Shown piece by piece: positions 5,344-37,192 of a stretch of 64,000 bases of DNA. The notes beneath the pieces are model-generated. The model saw nothing but the letters and a program-made list of their open reading frames with translations. It had not been told where the DNA came from and ran no database searches. The DNA is from Bacteroidia bacterium (GTDB lineage Bacteria; Bacteroidota; Bacteroidia; UBA8524): contig OZ252261.1 of the NCBI GenBank assembly GCA_965249955.1, forward strand, positions 3,362,490 to 3,426,489, in the 5' to 3' direction. The position numbers and the translations under genes are program-made. Numbering within the stretch: the first letter of the stretch is position 1; each line of letters opens with the position of its first letter.

Positions 5344-5844
5344 TTATAAGATTGCAGTGTTAATAACGGTTTGCGCCGATACAAGAGTACTCAATATTTC
5401 AAATTTTGCCTGTTTATAATAGGGTTCTCTAACCTTTAATAAACCATTTATATAGCCAAAAAGGTCATTTTTTTCAATTTCTCTTAATAAAGGACGTTTT
5501 TGTATAGCTGATGAAAGTCTTTTTTCAAGCTCCTTAACTTCTTGGTTTATGTATATAGTTATACCGTTTTGGTTCATCCATTGCATATTATTGTGGTAGC
5601 AGGGCATACCCCCGCCTGTGGCTACTATGGTATTAGTTGTAAATGTAAGCCCTCGCAAGGTATCGGCTTCTAATATCCTAAAGGCTTCTTCGCCTTTTGA
5701 AGCAAAAAGTTGATTAATGGTTTGCCCACAGTTTTTTTCAATCTCCTTGTCAGTATCTATAAAGTGATACCCGTATTCGCTGGCTACCAGTTGGGCTATG
5801 CTGGTTTTGCCTGCACCCATAAATCCAACTAAAAAAATCACCAT
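5344..5844 (-). CDS. aroK: Shikimate kinase
   Basis: 166 aa with a P-loop (GFMGAGKTS) and shikimate kinase layout. Confidence 0.85.
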   Translation of the reverse strand: MVIFLVGFMGAGKTSIAQLVASEYGYHFIDTDKEIEKNCGQTINQLFASKGEEAFRILEADTLRGLTFTTNTIVATGGGMPCYHNNMQWMNQNGITIYINQEVKELEKRLSSAIQKRPLLREIEKNDLFGYINGLLKVREPYYKQAKFEILSTLVSAQTVINTAIL

Positions 5845-5848
5845 GTGT

Positions 5849-6901
5849 TTAGTTTATGCTAACTCGTGGGTCTAATACTTTGTATAGTATATCTACCACT
5901 ATGTTTATTACAATAAAAATAACAGCTATTAGCAATATTGCACCCATTACTACGGGGTAGTCTGATTTTTCGAGTGCATCAACCGTTACTTTGCCTACGC
6001 CACGCCAGTTAAAAATATATTCAACAAAAAACGAGCCTGCCAACAGTGAGGCAAACCACCCCGAAATTGATGTTATAACAGGATTTAAGGCATTCTTTAG
6101 CGCGTGCCCCCATACTACCCTAAAGTGGTTTAATCCTTTCGCGTATGCCGTGCGTATGTAGTCTTGTCCCATTACATCAATAGTACTACTTCGGGTAAGC
6201 TGTATAATAATTGCCAGTGGGCGTATGCCTAAAGCAAAAGCAGGTAGTATAAGATTTTTTAGATTGAAAAACCGATTGTAGTTACCATCGTAATCTACAA
6301 GGCTCCCTGTCATATTAAGCCCTGTGTACTCGGTTAGCACATAACCAAATAACCACGCAATAATTATAGCTGCAAAAAATGAGGGCATTGATATGCCTAT
6401 AGTGCTAATAAATAGTATACTTCTATCTGTAAAAGTATCTTGTTTTAAAGCAGCAAATACACCCATGCCAATACCTAGTATTGATGCTATTAGTATTGAT
6501 GCTAGGGCAAGCACGGCTGTGCCTAAAAATGATTCTGATAAAATTTCGGATACCTTTTTTTTGCTTTGATACGAGCGGCGCAGATAAGGGTATTTTAGTA
6601 CTGTAGCTGTTTGGCCTATGGTGAATAGAGTGGCAAAATTATACTTTTCTTTATTTTCTTGTGTGGGTTGATGGAAGGATAGAGGGGAGAGATCGTTAAT
6701 ATAAAACAGTAATTGTTGCCCTTTGCTTTTATCAAGACCGAACTCTTTTTTTATAGCATCTTTGGTAAGAATATCATCGCGTTGACCAGCCATTATCTCA
6801 GCAGGGTCGGGAAACCAAGCAAACAGCATAAACACCAGCAGTACTATTCCTAATAATACCAACAGGCCGTAAAGAAGTTTTTTGATAATGAAGGATAGCA
6901 T
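5849..6901 (-). CDS. ABC transporter permease (Dpp/Opp-type inner membrane component)
   Basis: 350 aa, multi-TM, with an EAA-like loop typical of binding-protein-dependent permeases. Confidence 0.75.
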   Translation of the reverse strand: MLSFIIKKLLYGLLVLLGIVLLVFMLFAWFPDPAEIMAGQRDDILTKDAIKKEFGLDKSKGQQLLFYINDLSPLSFHQPTQENKEKYNFATLFTIGQTATVLKYPYLRRSYQSKKKVSEILSESFLGTAVLALASILIASILGIGMGVFAALKQDTFTDRSILFISTIGISMPSFFAAIIIAWLFGYVLTEYTGLNMTGSLVDYDGNYNRFFNLKNLILPAFALGIRPLAIIIQLTRSSTIDVMGQDYIRTAYAKGLNHFRVVWGHALKNALNPVITSISGWFASLLAGSFFVEYIFNWRGVGKVTVDALEKSDYPVVMGAILLIAVIFIVINIVVDILYKVLDPRVSIN

Positions 6902-14134: not shown

Positions 14135-15577
<1,443 letters not shown>

Positions 15578-15684
15578 CCCCTTAGTCCTTTAGGAAAACC
15601 TTACAACAACCTTTCATAAATAATGTACTGCCTTGCTGCTCGCAAGGGCGGCAGGGTAGTTTTTGTCCTAAAAAAAGAGAAAAA

Positions 15685-16683
15685 ATGACTGTTATAGCAC
15701 AAGAAACAACAGGGGTATTTGATACCGAAACACAGTTTACTTTAGAAAATGGCGAGGTATTGCCATCGCTTACCATTGCCTATACCATACAGGGAAATAT
15801 TAATGCCATTGCTGATAATATAATTTGGGTGTGCCATGCACTTACAGCCAATGCCAATGCTACCGAATGGTGGGGGGATTTGATAGGAGAGGGCAAAACC
15901 TTTGATATTAATAAGTATGCCGTAGTATGTGCCAATATTATAGGCTCGCCTTATGGTAGTACAAGCCCGCTAACCATTAACCCCAACACAGGTAAAAACT
16001 ACGGTTTAGATTTTCCTTTAGTAACCATACGCGATATGGCAAAAGCATGGGAACTATTGCGTAAACATTTAGGTATAAATAGTATACACCTGCTTATTGG
16101 CGGCTCAATGGGCGGGCAGCAAGCACTGGAGTGGGCAATAATCAATCCTGATGTTATACAAAACCTTGTTTTACTGGCAACCAATGCGCAACATTCGGCT
16201 TGGGGCATAGCTTTTAACGAAGCTCAACGATTAGCCATACAAGCAGGTGAAAGAGGTTTAGAAGCCGCACGAGCCATAGCCATGTTATCTTACAGAAATT
16301 ATAATCTTTACAACCAAACACAGGCCGATGAAGACAATGTGTTACAAGAGCACAAAGCTGCTACCTACCAACAATATCAGGGGCAAAAATTGGCAGCCCG
16401 CTTTGATGCGAATTGCTATATAAGCCTTAGCCGCAGTATGGATACTCACAATGTGGGTAGGGGACGGGGAGGTGTTAAACAAGCCCTTAAACAAGTGAAA
16501 GCCAAAACAGTAGTAATAGGTATATCAACCGATATACTTTTCCCTCCGCAAGAACAATCGTTTTTAGCGCGCAATATCAAAGGGGCATATCTGGGTATTG
16601 TTAGCTCCATTTATGGGCACGATGCCTTTTTGATAGAAACCCAACAAATAGCCAACATTATAAAACAATACAAACTGGTATGA
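15685..16683 (+). CDS. metX: Homoserine O-acetyltransferase
   Basis: Alpha/beta hydrolase with the nucleophile motif GGSMGG and a MetX-like sequence. Confidence 0.9.
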   Translation: MTVIAQETTGVFDTETQFTLENGEVLPSLTIAYTIQGNINAIADNIIWVCHALTANANATEWWGDLIGEGKTFDINKYAVVCANIIGSPYGSTSPLTINPNTGKNYGLDFPLVTIRDMAKAWELLRKHLGINSIHLLIGGSMGGQQALEWAIINPDVIQNLVLLATNAQHSAWGIAFNEAQRLAIQAGERGLEAARAIAMLSYRNYNLYNQTQADEDNVLQEHKAATYQQYQGQKLAARFDANCYISLSRSMDTHNVGRGRGGVKQALKQVKAKTVVIGISTDILFPPQEQSFLARNIKGAYLGIVSSIYGHDAFLIETQQIANIIKQYKLV

Positions 16684-17933
16684 AAAATTTAAAAATAGGA
16701 TTATTTGGCTTTGGCTGTGTAGGTCAGGGCTTTTATAAAGTATTAGAAAACAACGGACAAACAAAAAACATAGCCAAAATAGTGGTGAAAGACCCAAGCA
16801 AAAGCCGCTCGTTACCCGCCAATAGGTTTGTGTACAACAAGCACGATATTTTGGGTGATGAAAGCATTAATCTGGTGGTAGAAGTGATAGATGATGCCGA
16901 TGAAGCCTTTGAAATAGTAAAAACAGCATTAAGCAAAGGCAAAGCAGTAGTTAGTGCTAACAAAAAAATGATAGCTACCCGCTTGCAAGAGCTGCTAAAC
17001 CTGCAAAAGCAATACAAAACACCCTTTCTGTACGATGCAGCAATCTGCGGCAGCATACCCATACTGCGAACGGTGGATAGTTATTTTGCTACCGATGAAA
17101 TACAAAGCCTGCAAGGCATTTTTAACGGTACTACCAATTATATACTAACCCGCACAGCCGAAGGCGAAACCTATGCCCAAGCATTAGAAAAAGCACAACA
17201 ACTGGGCTTTGCCGAGACCGACCCTACACTGGATGTAGGGGGCTTTGACCCGAAATACAAACTCACTCTTTTATTGGCACAAGCCTTTGGTGTAGTAGTC
17301 CCTCCAACAGAAATACTGAACATAGGTATTAACAAACTACTACCTCTTGATGTTGAGTTTGCCGAAAAAAGAGGGTATAACATAAAACTATTGGCTCAAG
17401 CTCAAAAAGCGGGAAGCCGCTTGTGGGGTTATGTGCTGCCTAGTTTTGTGAGCAAAAAAAGCCGATTGTTTGGGGTGAAAAACGAGTACAATGCCGTGTG
17501 GTTGCAAACTCGTCAAGCCGATGGGCAGTTTTACGAAGGGAAAGGGGCAGGTAGCTTGCCCACAGGTCAAGCAGTGGCAGCCGATGTGTTGGCTTTAGCG
17601 CAGGGATATAGCTATCAGTACCCAAAACTTGAAACCATTGTCCCTGCTTACACTGATGACAAAGCCTTGCGTGTATACCTTCGCTATGGGGATGAAGCCA
17701 TGGCCAAAAAGTTGGGTTTTGTACCCGATGGGGTAATCCATTATGCAAAAGGGTATTACCAAAGTACAGGGACAGTTTACATTGGTGAATTACTAAGAAA
17801 CAATGCAGCACAAACTGAAGGTTTATTTATAGCCGCATTGCCCGAAGGCGAAGACGAAAACAAATTTTTGGATGAAGAGCAAAACCAACGCAAAAAACTA
17901 TTAGCGTATAGTGCATTGCCTTTGATGTATTAA
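16680..17933 (+). CDS. hom: Homoserine dehydrogenase
   Basis: N-terminal GLFGFGCVGQG Rossmann motif and homoserine dehydrogenase catalytic region. It overlaps metX by 4 bp. Confidence 0.88.
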   Translation: MKNLKIGLFGFGCVGQGFYKVLENNGQTKNIAKIVVKDPSKSRSLPANRFVYNKHDILGDESINLVVEVIDDADEAFEIVKTALSKGKAVVSANKKMIATRLQELLNLQKQYKTPFLYDAAICGSIPILRTVDSYFATDEIQSLQGIFNGTTNYILTRTAEGETYAQALEKAQQLGFAETDPTLDVGGFDPKYKLTLLLAQAFGVVVPPTEILNIGINKLLPLDVEFAEKRGYNIKLLAQAQKAGSRLWGYVLPSFVSKKSRLFGVKNEYNAVWLQTRQADGQFYEGKGAGSLPTGQAVAADVLALAQGYSYQYPKLETIVPAYTDDKALRVYLRYGDEAMAKKLGFVPDGVIHYAKGYYQSTGTVYIGELLRNNAAQTEGLFIAALPEGEDENKFLDEEQNQRKKLLAYSALPLMY

Positions 17934-17950
17934 TTTGATGATTAAGTTAT

Positions 17951-18042
17951 GGGGTTGAAATCCCATTCTGTTAAAATTACATCCCTAAGAAGGACTTAAG
18001 TCCTTCTTAGGGATGTAATTACAAAAGCGGTTGGTTTTAACC
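17951..18042. repeat. Structured intergenic repeat element, copy 1: small hairpin, long central hairpin with GGACTTAAGTCC apex, small GGTTGGTTTTAACC hairpin
   Basis: Central hairpin AATTACATCCCTAAGAAGGACTTAAGTCCTTCTTAGGGATGTAATT. The flanks are shared with the copies at about 25.95 kb and 34.35 kb. Confidence 0.75.
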
Positions 18043-18171
18043 TGCCGCATATAGCTGTCATTCCCTCAAAAGAGCGAATCTATGTGTAGGTAATAACCTT
18101 TCGCACAGATTCCCAATTTTAAATGGGAATGATTTTCCCTCCGCACCTCTTATTTTCTTTTTCTGTTAATA

Positions 18172-21169: not shown

Positions 21170-21318
21170 TCAATAGTTTCAAGTTTAAGGTTCTATGTTT
21201 TAAGAATGTTGTTTCAACCCAAAACCCTTAACCTAGAACTAGCCCTTAAAATCTGGAACTTTAAACAGCCTTTGCCAATTAAGCCCCAAAAACCTATTTT
21301 CGCATAAATTTAATACCA

Positions 21319-24034: not shown

Positions 24035-25920
24035 AAGAGAAAGAACACGCCTCAAAATCGCTAAGCGAGGTACACGGCAGTGTGAGTGTGCCTCATAAAC
24101 GCGGTTTTTTTAAAACCCTTTTAGCGTTTTTAGGGCCTGCCTATCTAGTTAGCGTGGGCTATATGGATCCGGGTAACTGGGCTACCGATTTGGCAGGAGG
24201 CAGTAAATTTGGCTATGCCCTTATTTGGGTATTGCTAATGAGTAACCTAATGGCTTTGTTATTGCAAAGTCTTAGTGCGCGTTTGGGTTTGGTGCGTGGC
24301 CTCGATTTAGCACAAGCCAGCCGACATACTTATCCGCGTTTTATTAATATCCCTCTGTATGTATTGGCCGAAATAGCCATAGCCGCTTGCGACCTTGCCG
24401 AAGTTATAGGTATGGCCATAGGCTTGCAACTGTTGTTTGGTCTCGATTTGCTAACGGGGGTGTTGATTACCGTAGCCGATACGTTTTTGCTTCTTTTCCT
24501 TATAAATAAAGGCATACGCAAAATGGAAGCCTTTATACTTTCAATGGTTACCATAATAGGTATTGCCTTTTTAATCGAAATGCTGATTGTAAAGCCCGAT
24601 GCTGGCGAGATGGTAAAAGGTTTAATCCCTTCACTACCCGGTGATGGAGCTTTGTATATAGCCATAGGCATTATAGGAGCAACGGTAATGCCTCACAACT
24701 TGTATTTGCATTCATCGTTAGTACAAACCCGCCGTTTCAGCAAAACCGATGAAGGTGTAAAAAAAGCCATTCGTTTCAATTTTATCGATTCAGCAGTTGC
24801 TCTTAACCTTGCTTTTTTTGTCAATGCAGCCATACTAATACTGGCAGCAGCAGCTTTTCATAATCGCGGTTACTTTGATGTGGCCGAAATTCAAGATGCA
24901 CACCAATTACTCACCAATCTTTTTGGTAGTACAGCCCCAATATGGTTTGCTATTGCACTAATAGCCGCAGGGCAAAGCAGTACCATTACAGGCACATTGG
25001 CTGGTCAAATAATAATGGAAGGGTATCTAAACCTGCGTATTCGCCCTTGGTTGCGGCGTATTATTACTCGCTTGTTAGCAATAGTCCCTGCCGTTTTCAC
25101 CATAGTTTATTTAGGCGAAGAAAAATTGGGCGCATTGCTTATTCTTAGTCAGGTAATACTAAGCCTACAACTGGGCTTTGCCGTAATACCTTTAATACAC
25201 TTTGTTAGCAATAAGCGCAAAATGGGTATTTATGTTATAAAGCCGTGGGTACAAGTATTGGCTTGGCTGTGTGCCATTATTATTGTTGGTCTTAATGTTA
25301 AACTGGTTATTGACGAAATAAGCAGTTGGCTTCAAAGTGCAGGAGATAATAGTATTTATATATACATTTTTGTATTGCCCATTATTGTGTTGGCAGGTAT
25401 ACTGTTGCTTTACATTATTTTTAGTCCGTTTATAAAACCCGATAAGAAAGTAAAAACAAACAATATGCCGCACGGGCAGGCTTTAGATTTAGGAGAATTA
25501 ACCCTTAAAGAGTTTAAAAACGTGGCTATTACTATTGATTTTTCTGATATGGATAAAACAGCTATAGAAAATGCCATATCGCAGGGCGGAAAACAAGCCC
25601 ACTATACCCTGATACATATTGTAGAAAGTGCCGGGGCAAGTGTTATGGGTGCGGATATTCACGACCATGAAACTGAGCAAGATATAGAAAACCTTAGCAG
25701 CTATGGTAACTACCTGCAACAGCAAGGCTACCAAGCCGATGTGCAAATAGGCTACGGAAACCCCGCAAAGGGTATTGCTGAAATTGTAAATAAAAGCAAT
25801 TGCGACCTTTTGGTAATGGGGGCACACGGACACAAAACCTTTAAAGATTTGCTGTTTGGTGCTACCGTTGATGCGGTACGCCACAACGTTAAAATACCTG
25901 TATTGGTAGTGCGGGGGTAG
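24031..25920 (+). CDS. mntH: Nramp family divalent metal (Mn2+/Fe2+) transporter fused to a C-terminal universal stress protein (UspA) domain
   Basis: Nramp motif GPAYLVSVGYMDPGNWATDL with 11-12 TM helices, then a C-terminal Usp fold of about 150 aa. It overlaps mntR by 4 bp. Confidence 0.85.
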   Translation: MKEKEHASKSLSEVHGSVSVPHKRGFFKTLLAFLGPAYLVSVGYMDPGNWATDLAGGSKFGYALIWVLLMSNLMALLLQSLSARLGLVRGLDLAQASRHTYPRFINIPLYVLAEIAIAACDLAEVIGMAIGLQLLFGLDLLTGVLITVADTFLLLFLINKGIRKMEAFILSMVTIIGIAFLIEMLIVKPDAGEMVKGLIPSLPGDGALYIAIGIIGATVMPHNLYLHSSLVQTRRFSKTDEGVKKAIRFNFIDSAVALNLAFFVNAAILILAAAAFHNRGYFDVAEIQDAHQLLTNLFGSTAPIWFAIALIAAGQSSTITGTLAGQIIMEGYLNLRIRPWLRRIITRLLAIVPAVFTIVYLGEEKLGALLILSQVILSLQLGFAVIPLIHFVSNKRKMGIYVIKPWVQVLAWLCAIIIVGLNVKLVIDEISSWLQSAGDNSIYIYIFVLPIIVLAGILLLYIIFSPFIKPDKKVKTNNMPHGQALDLGELTLKEFKNVAITIDFSDMDKTAIENAISQGGKQAHYTLIHIVESAGASVMGADIHDHETEQDIENLSSYGNYLQQQGYQADVQIGYGNPAKGIAEIVNKSNCDLLVMGAHGHKTFKDLLFGATVDAVRHNVKIPVLVVRG

Positions 25921-25933
25921 ATTTTTGGTAATA

Positions 25934-26032
25934 GATTATGAAAATCTATTCTGTTAAAATTACAGCGCGAAGCGGGACTTAAAGTCCCGCTTCGCGCTGT
26001 AATTACAAAACGGTGGGTTTTAAACCCATCAC
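25934..26032. repeat. Structured intergenic repeat element, copy 2
   Basis: AATTACAGCGCGAAGCGGGACTTAAAGTCCCGCTTCGCGCTGTAATT with the conserved flanks CTATTCTGTTAAAATTACA and TGTAATTACAAAACGG. Confidence 0.75.
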
Positions 26033-26080
26033 AATAAAATAATAGCCACAAAATCTTTTACTTTTGCAGTAGATACAGCT

Positions 26081-26473
26081 ATGAAAAACCCTTTTACGGC
26101 AGGAGATAAAAAAATATACACCAAAATAGTTGCCGCTAACGAAATTGCCCAGTTTGAAAGCGGACAAGTACACCCCGTATACGCTACCTTTGCACTAGGC
26201 AAAGATGCCGAGTGGAGTACCCGCTTGTTTGTGTTGGATATGAAAGAAGAGGATGAAGAAGGTATAGGCACATTTCTTACCGTATACCATCAATCACCTG
26301 CATTGGTGGGGCAAGAGGTTACTTTTGAGGCGGAAGTAGTGAAGATTGAAAAAAACGAAGTAATTTGTAAATACACCGCTCGCGTTGGCGATAGGGTAGT
26401 AGCAACAGGTGAAACAGGGCAAAAAATATTGAAGAAAGAAAAAGTAGAACGACTTTTTGCAAGCATACAATAA
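26081..26473 (+). CDS. Hotdog-fold thioesterase-like protein
   Basis: 130 aa; sequence pattern consistent with the thioesterase superfamily. Confidence 0.45.
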   Translation: MKNPFTAGDKKIYTKIVAANEIAQFESGQVHPVYATFALGKDAEWSTRLFVLDMKEEDEEGIGTFLTVYHQSPALVGQEVTFEAEVVKIEKNEVICKYTARVGDRVVATGETGQKILKKEKVERLFASIQ

Positions 26474-34229: not shown

Positions 34230-34343
34230 ACGCTTGCGAAGTTATAAGAATAACGTCAGGGTGAAAATATCTATTGCTATTTATATTTTAAGAATGGGGA
34301 AGGTGAAAGAAATTAGGTGTTTTTTATTCGTTTTCTGTTAATA

Positions 34344-34440
34344 GGATTAAAACCCTATTCTGTTAAGATTACAGCGCATAGTGGGACTTAAGTCCCACTA
34401 TGGACTGTAATTGTAAAAACGGTTGGTTTCAACCAATTGT
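34344..34440. repeat. Structured intergenic repeat element, copy 3
   Basis: GATTACAGCGCATAGTGGGACTTAAGTCCCACTATGGACTGTAATTG with a GGTTGGTTTCAACCAATTG right hairpin. Confidence 0.75.
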
Positions 34441-34628
34441 AAATTAATCATCAATTACTAAAATGGCGATTGGTTGAAACTCACCCCAGTTTTATGGGAA
34501 AGCCGGAATTACATAACGGCGCCCCTCTCTTAAAAAAAGAGAGGGGTATTTATGAGCGTCGATACTAAACTTATTATTTGGGGTGAGTTGACAAAATACT
34601 AGTTATAGGTGTAATAAGGTATAGATAG

Positions 34629-34679
34629 CCACTATGCGCTGTAATTGTAAAAACGGTTGGTTTCAACCAATTGTAAATA
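34629..34679. repeat. Partial fourth copy (right half) of the repeat element; an approximately 50-bp direct repeat of copy 3
   Basis: CCACTATGCGCTGTAATTGTAAAAACGGTTGGTTTCAACCAATTGTAAATA. Confidence 0.65.
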
Positions 34680-34687
34680 ACCAATCA

Positions 34688-37192
34688 CTAAAAATAAGGG
34701 TCAACATCAACCTGCACCAATACTTTGCGGTTGTCTTTGTTTTCCATAAAGGTATCAATGCTGCGCTGTATGGTAGCTTTTACCCATTGCACCGATACTT
34801 TTTCGCGCTCTATTTTTACCATTATGTTACGTATGTACATATTTTTTAGTCGCGATATGTATGGAGCTTGAGGGCCTAAAATTCTATCGCCTAGTTTTTC
34901 TCGCAGTATGTGTGCCAGTTGGGCAGCCGCTATTTCTGTAACCTCAGCATCTTTGTGTTTTAGGCGCAAGTTTATAAGCTTGAAATAAGGCGGGTAGTGA
35001 AAACGATAACGCTCGTTAAGGTCGGTTTGATAAAACCCTTCATAGTCGTGTACTAGCACGTATTGTATAGTGGGGTGGTAGGGACGGCGGGTTTGTATCA
35101 ACACTTGCCCGTATTTCTCTTTTCGTCCTGCCCGGCCAGCCACTTGGCTCATTAGCGAGTAAGCACGCTCATTTGCTCTAAAATCAGGTTGGTGTAGCAG
35201 TTGGTCAGCATCCAAAACCACCACTAGCGATATATCGTCAAAATCCAAGCCCTTAGCCACCATTTGCGTGCCTATTAGCACATCAATATTGTGGTTTTCA
35301 AAATCGTTTATTATGCGATGGTAAGCATTTTTGGTGCGGGTATTTTCAAGGTCAAAACGTTCAGTACGGGCATTGGGCATAATCAATTGCAGTTCCTCTT
35401 CAATACGCTCGGTACCATAGCCCATCATTTCAAGGTGGTGGCTTTCGCAAGCCTCACACTTGTTGTAGGGGGCGTGTTGGTAACCACAAAACTGGCACTT
35501 AAAGGCACGGTGGTATTTATAGTAGGTAAGGCTTATATCGCAATTCTCGCATTTGGGCACCCAGCCGCAGGTTTTGCAAACGGTAATAGGCACAAAGCCT
35601 TTGCGGTTTTGAAAAAGTATGGCCTGCTCTTCGTTTTTTATGGTTTGGGTAAGCAAGTCCAACATGTGTTGGGTAAAAGGGCCTTTTAGTAGGTTTTTTT
35701 TGGCTGCCTCGGCCATATCAACAGTAAGTATTTGGGGCAGTTGTGCATGCCCAAAACGTTCTTCCAGTTTCACCAAACCGTATTTACCCGCTTTGGCATT
35801 GTAATAGGTTTCTACCGATGGGGTGGCTGTGCCCAATAGTGTTTTGGCTTGCCACAAATGGGCAAGGTAGATGGCTGCATCGCGACCATGATAGCGGGGT
35901 GAGGGGTCGTTTTGTTTAAAGCTGCCCTCGTGCTCCTCGTCAATAATTATAAGCCCTAGATTTTGAAAAGGTAAAAATATTGCCGAGCGGGGGCCTACTA
36001 TTACTTTGGCTTTTTGGTGGGCTACGTTGTTCCAAATTTCTACCCGTTCCTGCTCGTTAAAGCGTGAATGTGATACTGCTACATCGTTGCCAAAGTGGGC
36101 ACGCAATCGGCTTACCAATTGTATTGTAAGGGCAATTTCGGGCAAAAGGTATAGTACTTGCTTGCCTTGCTCTAAGGTTTGTTTTATCAGTTCAATGTAT
36201 ATGTGGGTTTTGCCACTGCCGGTAATGCCGTGCATTAGTACCACATCTTTTTCGGCAAGGGCGTTTTCTGTTTCTTCTAAAGCCTTTTGTTGCAAAGGGT
36301 TTAGGGTGTTTTCTATTAGTTGGGGTTGTGGCGTGTTTAGCCTATCAACCTGTATTTCTTCTTCAACAAAAACACCTTTTTTTACTAATGATTTTAAAGC
36401 GGTTTTGTGCGAAGTTTCAGGCGCTATTTCATCTTTAAAAATATCATCTTGTTGGTGTTGCAGGCTAAAAAAGTGCATCAGCACATCCAACTGTTTTGGG
36501 GCGCGTTTTTCTAAGCCGCTGAACAAATCGCGCAGCAGTGGCGAATCGTTAGCAAGGTCGGGGTTTAGGCGTACTATTGTGCGGGTTTTGGGTTTGTAGC
36601 GGTCTTTTATTTCTTCGTTTATGATGATAAACCCTTTATCGAACAGCGAACGGATAACAGGAAAGGTGTTTTTAATATTGAGAATATCGGCCACATCACC
36701 CAGTGCTATTTCTTGTCCTTTTTGATTTTTTATAGCGAAAAGAAGAGTTTCTTCTTTTTGGCTTAGCTCGGTATCGTCCATACCTTCGGCTAAAGCATTC
36801 CATTTTATTTTCGATTCACTTTCCAGCTTCATGGCCGATGGTAAGGCGGCTTTCATCACATCACCAATGGGTGCCATATAGTACTCGGCAATCCAATCCC
36901 AAAATTTTAGCAGGGTACTATTTACTATAGGCTCATCGTCTAATACATGTAAAATGTATTTTGCCTGATAGCCTTTTGGAGGATGTATAGATACTTCTCT
37001 TACAACGCCTGAGTATATTTTGCGTTTACCAAACTGCACTATTACACGCTTACCCACTGCTATATCATCGTTCATCTCAAAAGGCACGCGGTAGGTGTAG
37101 GCTTTTGGTAAACGTAGGGGTAAAACTACTTCGGCAAAAAGTGTTTCACGGTCTTGTGAGTCTGTTTCGGTATTAAACTGCAATAGCGACAT
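34688..37192 (-). CDS. priA: Primosomal protein N' (replication restart helicase)
   Basis: Walker A (GITGSGKT), DEEH box and a Cys-rich zinc-binding insert (CKTCGW...CENC...CQFCG). Confidence 0.95.
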   Translation of the reverse strand: MSLLQFNTETDSQDRETLFAEVVLPLRLPKAYTYRVPFEMNDDIAVGKRVIVQFGKRKIYSGVVREVSIHPPKGYQAKYILHVLDDEPIVNSTLLKFWDWIAEYYMAPIGDVMKAALPSAMKLESESKIKWNALAEGMDDTELSQKEETLLFAIKNQKGQEIALGDVADILNIKNTFPVIRSLFDKGFIIINEEIKDRYKPKTRTIVRLNPDLANDSPLLRDLFSGLEKRAPKQLDVLMHFFSLQHQQDDIFKDEIAPETSHKTALKSLVKKGVFVEEEIQVDRLNTPQPQLIENTLNPLQQKALEETENALAEKDVVLMHGITGSGKTHIYIELIKQTLEQGKQVLYLLPEIALTIQLVSRLRAHFGNDVAVSHSRFNEQERVEIWNNVAHQKAKVIVGPRSAIFLPFQNLGLIIIDEEHEGSFKQNDPSPRYHGRDAAIYLAHLWQAKTLLGTATPSVETYYNAKAGKYGLVKLEERFGHAQLPQILTVDMAEAAKKNLLKGPFTQHMLDLLTQTIKNEEQAILFQNRKGFVPITVCKTCGWVPKCENCDISLTYYKYHRAFKCQFCGYQHAPYNKCEACESHHLEMMGYGTERIEEELQLIMPNARTERFDLENTRTKNAYHRIINDFENHNIDVLIGTQMVAKGLDFDDISLVVVLDADQLLHQPDFRANERAYSLMSQVAGRAGRKEKYGQVLIQTRRPYHPTIQYVLVHDYEGFYQTDLNERYRFHYPPYFKLINLRLKHKDAEVTEIAAAQLAHILREKLGDRILGPQAPYISRLKNMYIRNIMVKIEREKVSVQWVKATIQRSIDTFMENKDNRKVLVQVDVDPYF

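Follow-up and report, generated by a model that had tools for sequence, protein, structure and literature searches.

A family of ~100-nt intergenic foldback repeats, probably of the REPIN kind, in uncultured Bacteroidia

REPINs are REP doublets that form hairpins (PMC3116915), and compensatory changes in the spacer of the hairpin have been described as common (Bertels & Rainey 2011, PMC3116915). Classical REPs carry a GTAG or CGTC tag, and G·T pairing is often reported in them (PMC3733652). In Quentin et al. 2018 (PMC6006769), the genes of the Bacteroidetes-specific TnpA_REP subclass 2.6 are described as flanked by 'atypical secondary structures' that have copies elsewhere in the genome, and the region for GTAG recognition is described as not conserved. 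REP and REPIN biology has been worked out almost wholly in Proteobacteria; in Bacteroidota, the 'atypical secondary structures' of that one RAYT subclass are all that has been noted.

Here we describe a family of non-autonomous foldback repeats of ~100 nt, dispersed between genes in a narrow lineage of uncultured Bacteroidia, that is probably of the REPIN kind. A preliminary description reported three intergenic elements in the window, the stretch of 64,000 nt analyzed here. All three are found on the + strand with slightly corrected ends, and a fourth, partial copy had been overlooked. The elements are listed below with their scores under R1, a covariance model built from 11 copies of the family.

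17950–18052, + strand: copy 1, full element, 111.9 bits; left hairpin ATGGGGTTGAAATCCCAT, junction TCTGTTAAAATTACA, central hairpin of 21 bp with inner arm TCCCTAAGAA and apex GGACTTAAGTCC, junction ACAAAA, right hairpin GCGGTTGGTTTTAACCTGCCGC
25933–26036, + strand: copy 2, full element, 103.2 bits; inner arm GCGCGAAGCG, apex GGACTTAAAGTCC with an extra A
34342–34444, + strand: copy 3, full element, 103.1 bits; inner arm GCGCATAGTG, two stem mismatches, antisense to both flanking genes
34629–34700, + strand: partial copy, 3' half only, 24.4 bits

Each full copy is ~103 nt long and is composed of a small left hairpin, a central hairpin of 21–22 bp, and a small right hairpin. The side hairpins are seen in the folds of all three copies, as first described. 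The common left flank, ATTCTGTTAA(A/G)ATTACA (17 nt), matches exactly three times in the window, in accordance with the original claim; with up to three mismatches it matches five times, a number that none of the shuffles attains (shuffle mean 1.21). The right-flank consensus is present as well, in a looser form than written. The three copies fold with energies of −44 to −56 kcal/mol (z −8.4 to −12.9 against dinucleotide shuffles), and their opposite strands fold almost equally well. The full copies in the window score 103–112 bits under R1, corresponding to E ~1e-20.

Two details of the preliminary description need correction. The apex was called identical in all copies, but copy 2, with its extra A, is absent from the matches to the 12-mer GGACTTAAGTCC at up to two mismatches. 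Every copy was called perfectly self-complementary, but the 3' arm of copy 3, CACTATGGAC, has two mismatches against GCGCATAGTG. The partial copy is a duplicate of the 3' half of copy 3 and its downstream flank, 234 nt away, and its arm, CACTATGCGC, is the perfect complement of the 5' arm of copy 3. The duplication is visible as a 72-nt direct repeat (34395–34466 and 34629–34700, 234 nt apart, 83% identity), in which the proximal arm, which closes the hairpin, has two changes and the distal arm pairs perfectly with the 5' arm.

Pfam assignments agree with the flanking genes first named (a convergent site after hom, an mntH-type Nramp gene, and priA). Copy 1 lies in the convergent spacer between homoserine dehydrogenase (hom) and a DUF2306 gene, 17 nt past the hom stop codon. 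Copy 2 lies between an Nramp-Usp gene and an FlK thioesterase gene, and copy 3 between a TPR/CAP gene and priA. Copies 1 and 2 are sense relative to the upstream gene. A search of the window for tRNA and tmRNA returned none. A short hairpin, AGATTCCCAATTTTAAATGGGAATGA, is present at ~18115–18150, directly downstream of the DUF2306 gene; it is kept in L036, an ortholog of the copy 1 locus, and in L050, an ortholog that lacks copy 1. Judging from its sequence and position, it may be the DUF2306 gene's own terminator, separate from the repeat.

The preliminary description knew only the copies in the window and proposed a covariance-model search for more. A scan of GTDB species genomes with the left flank and the closing arm gives 27 hits, of which 8 are genuine copies in four Bacteroidia-type MAGs and 19 are chance. 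One of these MAGs is labelled Agrobacterium, and the label is probably wrong. Hits in a Methanobacteriaceae stretch (L004, L005, L017, L020, and L026) are chance pattern hits, unrelated to the element, and were rejected as family members; the stretch is conserved at 84–92% among Methanobacteriaceae MAGs and is coding-like by appearance. A metagenome scan that fixed the 5' flank and the apex only, leaving the 3' arm free, gives 17 loci from two assemblies. The MDTD01 assembly is 96–97% identical to the window, and OFDN01 is from the same organism as, or a close relative of, one of the MAGs (97% over the common 7.8 kb). R1 finds further, more divergent copies in the same loci.

Altogether, ~40 copies scoring 75–117 bits are found, in the window and in JAMIFM01, JBBKVO01, CALRQL02/OFDN01, DASPJH01, and MDTD01. 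The carriers are five or six uncultured Bacteroidia genomes with a GC content of ~39%. All ~40 copies are intergenic, and the estimated density of additional, non-ascertained copies in the carrier loci is ~1 per 15–20 kb. A search of viral contigs, plasmids, and phages returned no copies.

The consensus was originally said not to be recognizable as a described family. In accordance, Rfam at gathering thresholds gives no match across the window, and at permissive thresholds gives generic long-hairpin matches only (miRNA precursors and the like, 10–35 bits against gathering thresholds of at least 39 bits). The consensus strings do not occur in the literature searched. A fragment of a known IS or MITE terminal repeat had been considered as a possible origin, and no known element matches. 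The family appears undescribed.

A second, different triple-hairpin repeat family is present in the carrier loci (L012 2629–2730, −; L003 1117–1212, +; L032 4945–5046, −; L031 9985–10085, −). Its central hairpin reads GT(C/T)(C/A)TGAATGGTTTnAAACCATTC... and its right hairpin GGCGGGCTTTATGCCCGTC. The distance to a copy of the first family is 12–130 nt in L003 and L012, a mosaic layout that recalls BIMEs.

The right module of the element resembles the reverse complement of the left module, with a 2-nt indel, indicating that the whole unit is an imperfect foldback of ~100 nt. In the copy in L035, left-type arms are present at both sides. The left and right hairpins are ~18–22 nt each. Among 21 non-redundant copies, the mean pairwise identity is 0.91–0.92 at the stem base (ATTAC[A/C] / [G/T]GTAAT) and 0.90 at the apex (GGACTTAAGTCC), and only 0.32–0.37 in the inner 10 nt of each arm. 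The conservation of the stem base and the apex is partly imposed by the search patterns; the listed copies that were found by the covariance model alone also keep both. The inner arms form recognizable subfamilies, e.g. nnGCGAAGCr and CGyrTTGGwrm, indicating that the arms diverge by ordinary descent.

An explicit three-helix model was scored on the alignment of the 21 copies. Standard pairs occupy 93.4% of cells, compared with 74.8% after shuffling and 32–46% when the register is slid. Double-sided changes are observed in 163 cells against 48.8 ± 6.2 expected, a value reached by 0 of 500 shuffles, and changes on both sides occur at 26 of the 38 pairs overall and at 15 of the 22 central pairs. 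The original claim that the stems change in a compensatory manner, and that the elements are not simply a decaying repeat, therefore holds for all three helices. Its novelty is lower than was assumed, because compensatory changes in the hairpin spacer are already common in REPINs.

Pairs of orthologous copies indicate how the stem changes in place. Between copy 1 and its ortholog in a strain of 96% identity (L036), the only difference across 127 nt is one compensated T>A/A>T pair. Copy 2 differs from its ortholog at 97% identity (L028) by a single uncompensated A·C. From its ortholog at 90% (L002) it differs by a compensated G>A/C>T pair and by a loop that reads as the reverse complement (TAA against TTA), as template switching predicts. 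Between L001 and L030 (~88%), five of the 10 inner pairs have changed, all of them with compensation, and the conserved modules differ by ~3%. Between L003b and L006b (84%), three compensated pairs are found. By count, six orthologous pairs of copies show ~10 double changes and 3 single changes. The inner stem therefore seems, from these comparisons, to turn over at about the rate of unconstrained intergenic DNA, yet the palindrome stays perfect. Under selection alone, compensated changes should accumulate more slowly than neutral ones; we thus infer that either one arm is re-templated or imperfect copies are lost.

The preliminary description read the covariation as the mark of a selected RNA or DNA structure. 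Upkeep of the structure stands, but a selected RNA does not, since the central helix contains 409 Watson-Crick pairs and one G·U in the minimum-free-energy folds and the orientation of the copies is independent of transcription. At the 11 variable central pairs there are zero one-sided changes, and all four Watson-Crick types interchange. A-U/U-A flips are common in the central stem, and G-C to C-G is also seen; such flips cannot go via a wobble intermediate, which points away from RNA. The 30 copies with classifiable contexts comprise 8 sense, 10 antisense, 8 convergent, and 4 divergent. Copies 1 and 3 taken by themselves suggest that the G·U pairs lie on the transcribed strand, but the full data set does not bear this out: in it, neither the wobble counts nor the energy differences between strands track the transcribed strand. 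The G·U intermediates and consistent orientation expected of a structured RNA are thus not observed, the exception being wobbles on the + strand in the right hairpin. The paired stem changes look like the upkeep of a DNA palindrome and are not evidence of a small RNA gene. As a general caution, strong compensatory covariation is not enough to call a dispersed hairpin a functional RNA; a DNA palindrome can be told from an RNA helix by the lack of G·U intermediates, the frequent A-U/U-A flips, and the indifference to the direction of transcription.

The positions of the copies bear on the possibility that the element acts in cis as an RNA, under host selection, in the 3' UTR, as a bidirectional terminator, an exonuclease shield, or an RNase III site. 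Such mRNA roles have been proposed for E. coli REPs and Neisseria Correia elements. In our data set, 26 of the 30 classifiable copies are downstream of one or both neighbouring genes, with divergent spacers under-represented (4 of 30). The hairpin is very stable on both strands and could therefore work in either orientation, and its 21–22 bp of perfect duplex are long enough for RNase III, for which this length is a sufficient substrate. On the − strand, the stem is followed by UUUUAA. However, the + strand lacks a proper U-tract, the central helix is free of G·U, unlike RNA helices under selection, and the asymmetry in wobbles and energy does not track the transcribed strand. A purely structural role would leave the conserved loops, junctions, and apex unexplained. 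Moreover, the same gene junctions are free of copies in close relatives, indicating that the genes do not need them. We consider a cis-acting RNA unlikely as the primary role of the family; a secondary, exapted effect on RNA could exist at some copies.

An intrinsic terminator in particular was rejected: on the + strand the stem is followed by ACAAAAG, and on the − strand by UUUUAAC, with two of the U's inside the stem. L021 contains two unrelated long perfect hairpins with T-runs (6513–6558 and 5565–5656) that resemble intrinsic terminators, indicating that conventional terminators, separate from the repeat family, seem to exist in the lineage.

In the right hairpin, 20 G·U pairs are found on the + strand of the element and 2 on the − strand. 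One position is C-G in eight copies and U·G (T·G) in eight, in stems that otherwise differ. Therefore, one strand of the element matters, and this strand is set by the element itself, not by host transcription. The strand-specific wobble is the outcome expected of a strand-specific enzyme that acts on single-stranded DNA. Transposons that move as single strands are expected to show a bias with respect to replication; the orientation of the copies relative to local GC skew shows a weak trend only (18 of 27, p=0.12). Because a single element combines a wobble-free central stem, turning over about neutrally, with a terminal hairpin that keeps its T·G on one strand, the family is a natural system in which to follow the upkeep of a palindrome.

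The + strand wobbles, which occur whatever the orientation of the host gene, are also what a multicopy small ncRNA gene would show, with its own promoter on the + strand of the element and the hypervariable stem as a copy-specific specificity segment; conserved loops and apex beside variable stems would fit such a gene as well. This option was named in the preliminary description. The flanks beyond the left hairpin are unrelated and contain no conserved promoter candidate upstream of it, the left 34 nt (including the left hairpin and the junction) average only 0.63 identity, and no terminator follows the element. The central helix is devoid of G·U bar one, and Rfam gives no match. Copies are gained or lost between near relatives, and half and chimeric copies exist. 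Together with the mixed orientation, the strand asymmetry, and the absence of copies at orthologous sites in close relatives, the scarcity of G·U makes an ncRNA gene the least probable of the explanations weighed here, and a very improbable one.

Evidence for mobility comes from the comparison of orthologous sites. In L050, in which the flanks are 86–89% identical and the convergence of hom and DUF2306 is kept, copy 1 is absent, and window positions 17940–18056 (117 nt including copy 1) are replaced by 20 unrelated nt. This filled/empty site is neither a clean excision nor a clean insertion, and there is no outgroup to tell gain from loss. In relatives at ~75% DNA identity, no copies are present in the ~128 kb examined; ~82 kb of this (L045–L048) spans the sites of copies 2 and 3 in synteny with the window.

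Three other sites were rejected for this comparison. The copy 2 site in the ~75% relatives is not comparable at base level. Extra genes are present there and the spacers do not align: one or two ORFs of ~213 aa that look paralogous and have no Pfam hit lie between the Nramp-Usp gene and the thioesterase gene (L045 8670–10001, L046 9268–10001, L047/L048 8690–10001; corresponding to 25920–26081 in the window). The window clade lost these ORFs or never had them, and copy 2 occupies that spacer. In the carrier genome P0016 (L049), the thioesterase gene is in a different neighbourhood, so the site is not orthologous; an independent copy is present on the other side of that gene. In the case of L021, tried as a filled/empty pair, synteny with the window simply stops at the edge of the element, indicating a rearrangement junction and not an empty site.

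A check for target-site duplications, suggested in the preliminary description, detects none: the longest word shared by the two flanks averages 4.29 nt, compared with 4.18 ± 1.02 in controls. This result bears on the possibility of a classical MITE, i.e. a deletion derivative of an IS with a DDE transposase that moves by cut-and-paste via terminal inverted repeats. The inverted-repeat architecture, the small size, the intergenic dispersal, and the restriction to one lineage would fit such an element. However, target-site duplications are lacking, at the filled/empty site as elsewhere, and the stems of the terminal hairpins vary between copies instead of presenting fixed terminal sequences. 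For these two reasons a DDE-type MITE is very unlikely. In addition, no parent IS or transposase is present in the 287 kb examined, a small part of each genome, and no match is found among plasmids or phages. Among the three options named at the outset, the evidence favours a mobile unit, REP-like or MITE-like.

Several rearrangements coincide with the elements. Synteny between L003 and L040 is lost at an apex. At an orthologous site in these two genomes, which are 97% identical (L003 7702–7803, −; L040 8453–8554, −), the L040 copy keeps the original 3' arm up to the apex, and its 5' arm, CATATTGTGAA, and outer module come from a different element. The chimera may have arisen by a genuine inversion or by an exchange between copies within the 12-nt apex; alternatively, it is an artefact of metagenome assembly. 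Tandem duplications of 234 and ~272 nt start within elements; the latter holds two whole copies (L030 12757–12859 and 13029–13131). Several metagenome loci end inside elements, as does at least one contig, L044 (L032, L033, L034, L042, and L044). For genome annotation, the elements thus mark assembly breaks and rearrangement junctions in this lineage.

Larger blocks also have copies at their borders. In three genomes, the same 6.6-kb block of five ordinary-looking ORFs lies between two inverted copies (L003 1003–7803, L006 418–7189, L040 1735–8554). A three-gene block that ends at copy 1 (Cys/Met-metabolism PLP enzyme, alpha/beta hydrolase, and homoserine dehydrogenase; ~14228–17933 in the window) is missing between the DUF2306 gene and a TPR_6 gene in L051 (10654–10719) and L052 (4411–4521), whose DUF2306 proteins are 79–80% identical to that of the window (~75% DNA). 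Copy 1 therefore lies at one junction of a block that was itself inserted or rearranged. In the strain of 96% identity (L036/L053, 1–2230 of MDTD01148554.1), an MmeI-type restriction-modification gene (domains N6_Mtase, MmeI_Mtase, and Eco57I) is present past window position 21192, where homology to the window ends, a strain-specific difference in defence genes.

A further possibility is a host DNA site, at which a nucleoid protein, a topoisomerase, or a site-specific recombinase would bind or cleave an extruded cruciform, acting at its CTTAAG apex; such a site would spread by recombination and not by transposition. The L003/L040 apex, the mixed arms of the L040 copy, the L021 edge, and the two tandem duplications that begin inside elements all fit, as do the strongly conserved apex and the Watson-Crick pairing that is perfect on both strands, as a cruciform requires. 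E. coli BIMEs bind IHF and gyrase. But the family is confined to few genomes and is missing at ~75% identity, which would not be expected of a core function of the chromosome; the T·G on one strand of the right hairpin argues for a single-stranded form; and the chimeric copy, coming from a metagenome assembly, could be an artefact. We regard a host site as quite unlikely, more so than a cis-acting RNA.

The same apex could instead be the center of a distinct kind of hairpin-templated mobile DNA, in which a strand-specific enzyme nicks or joins at CTTAAG and one arm is regenerated by fold-back or template-switch synthesis. If this were so, regeneration would take place at each round of copying or continually in place, the stem would drift freely and always be a perfect palindrome, and the apex would be a hotspot at which copies exchange arms and so give rise to inversions and local duplications. 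A HUH/Y1 protein specific to Bacteroidia, with a new mode of recognition, could be the enzyme, as could something not yet linked to repeats. We consider this improbable, about on a par with a cis-acting RNA.

Our preferred reading is a non-autonomous foldback repeat of the REPIN kind. In this model, the loops, the junctions, the stem base (ATTAC[A/C]...[G/T]GTAAT), and the apex (GGACTTAAGTCC) would be the parts read by a protein, and the stems would matter solely as structure. The relevant folded form would be DNA rather than a transcript, most likely a single strand exposed at replication. The element would be copied or excised in trans by a strand-specific enzyme acting on single-stranded DNA, e.g. 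a HUH/Y1 REP-associated transposase. With such an enzyme, both the missing target-site duplications and the T·G seen on one strand of the right hairpin would be accounted for. In the central stem, drift of the inner 10 bp would be approximately neutral, with one arm repeatedly re-templated from the other by quasipalindrome or template-switch correction; alternatively, the palindrome may be perfect because imperfect copies cease to propagate. Effects on the 3' ends of flanking mRNAs, if any, would be secondary.

The ORF motifs of Y1/RAYT proteins, [ND]H[LIVFY]H ... Y[IV]xx[NE][PQ], do not occur in the 287 kb examined, which is a small part of each genome, and the genes between closely paired copies are ordinary genes, not transposases. 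RAYTs are usually single-copy, and a RAYT gene with its cognate repeats on its flanks is termed a REPtron. Given the single copy and the small fraction of each genome examined, the missing ORF is weak counter-evidence. With the GTAG tag absent and no cognate transposase found, membership in the REPIN family itself is tentative.

Among known systems, integron attC sites are folded single-stranded DNA sites with short boxes, a self-complementary variable center, and odd bases that set the strand. The present element follows a similar logic, with conserved boxes and a variable but self-complementary center. In contrast to attC sites, it is accompanied by no integrase and no cassette array, its neighbours are housekeeping genes in mixed orientation, and the order and sequence of its boxes do not fit RYYYAAC...GTTRRRY. 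An attC site was therefore rejected on the reversed box order, the lack of a cassette context, and the housekeeping flanking genes.

Neisseria Correia elements and enterobacterial ERIC sequences are intergenic inverted repeats of 100–150 nt; they fold into long hairpins and can affect how an mRNA is processed when they are transcribed with it. The present elements are likewise intergenic, built on inverted repeats, and able to form long hairpins. Defined terminal inverted repeats and TA duplications, both present in Correia elements, are not seen here.

The ends of IS200/IS605 elements, e.g. IS608, share with the present element small imperfect subterminal hairpins, the lack of DDE-type terminal inverted repeats, and the lack of target-site duplication. 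The IS200/IS605 hairpins are recognized on one strand only, and tnpA is carried between the ends. Here, only a hairpin lies between the terminal hairpins, and no tnpA was found in the 287 kb.

The closest resemblance is to the REPINs and BIMEs of Proteobacteria. As in these, the unit is ~100 nt long, with two inverted short palindromic units around a spacer, and folds into a long hairpin. REPs are short (20–40 nt) imperfect palindromes in many extragenic copies, and the units here, of ~18–22 nt, agree with this. As in REPINs, the units are inverted, the ends are conserved, and the spacer is less so and carries compensatory changes; the copies are intergenic, multicopy, and lineage-specific, and insertion or excision leaves no target-site duplication. 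The clustering with a second repeat family is a likeness to BIMEs and other mosaic elements. The family differs from classical REPs in the tags, which are rare and scattered in position (GTAG in 6 of the 32 copies, CGTC in 3), and from REPs with frequent G·T in its wobble-free Watson-Crick central stem. It differs from REPINs in that the central hairpin has an apex conserved to the same degree as the ends, and from those of Proteobacteria in its Bacteroidia host, its GC content of ~39%, and, in the 287 kb examined, the lack of a linked RAYT. By their description, the 'atypical secondary structures' of RAYT subclass 2.6 would be similar in being REP-like, from the same phylum, without a GTAG foot, and with copies elsewhere in the genome. 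Beside these systems, the family provides an alignable, well-delimited example from Bacteroidia that are uncultured; it has a clear consensus and a covariance model that works, and it includes orthologs at graded divergence.
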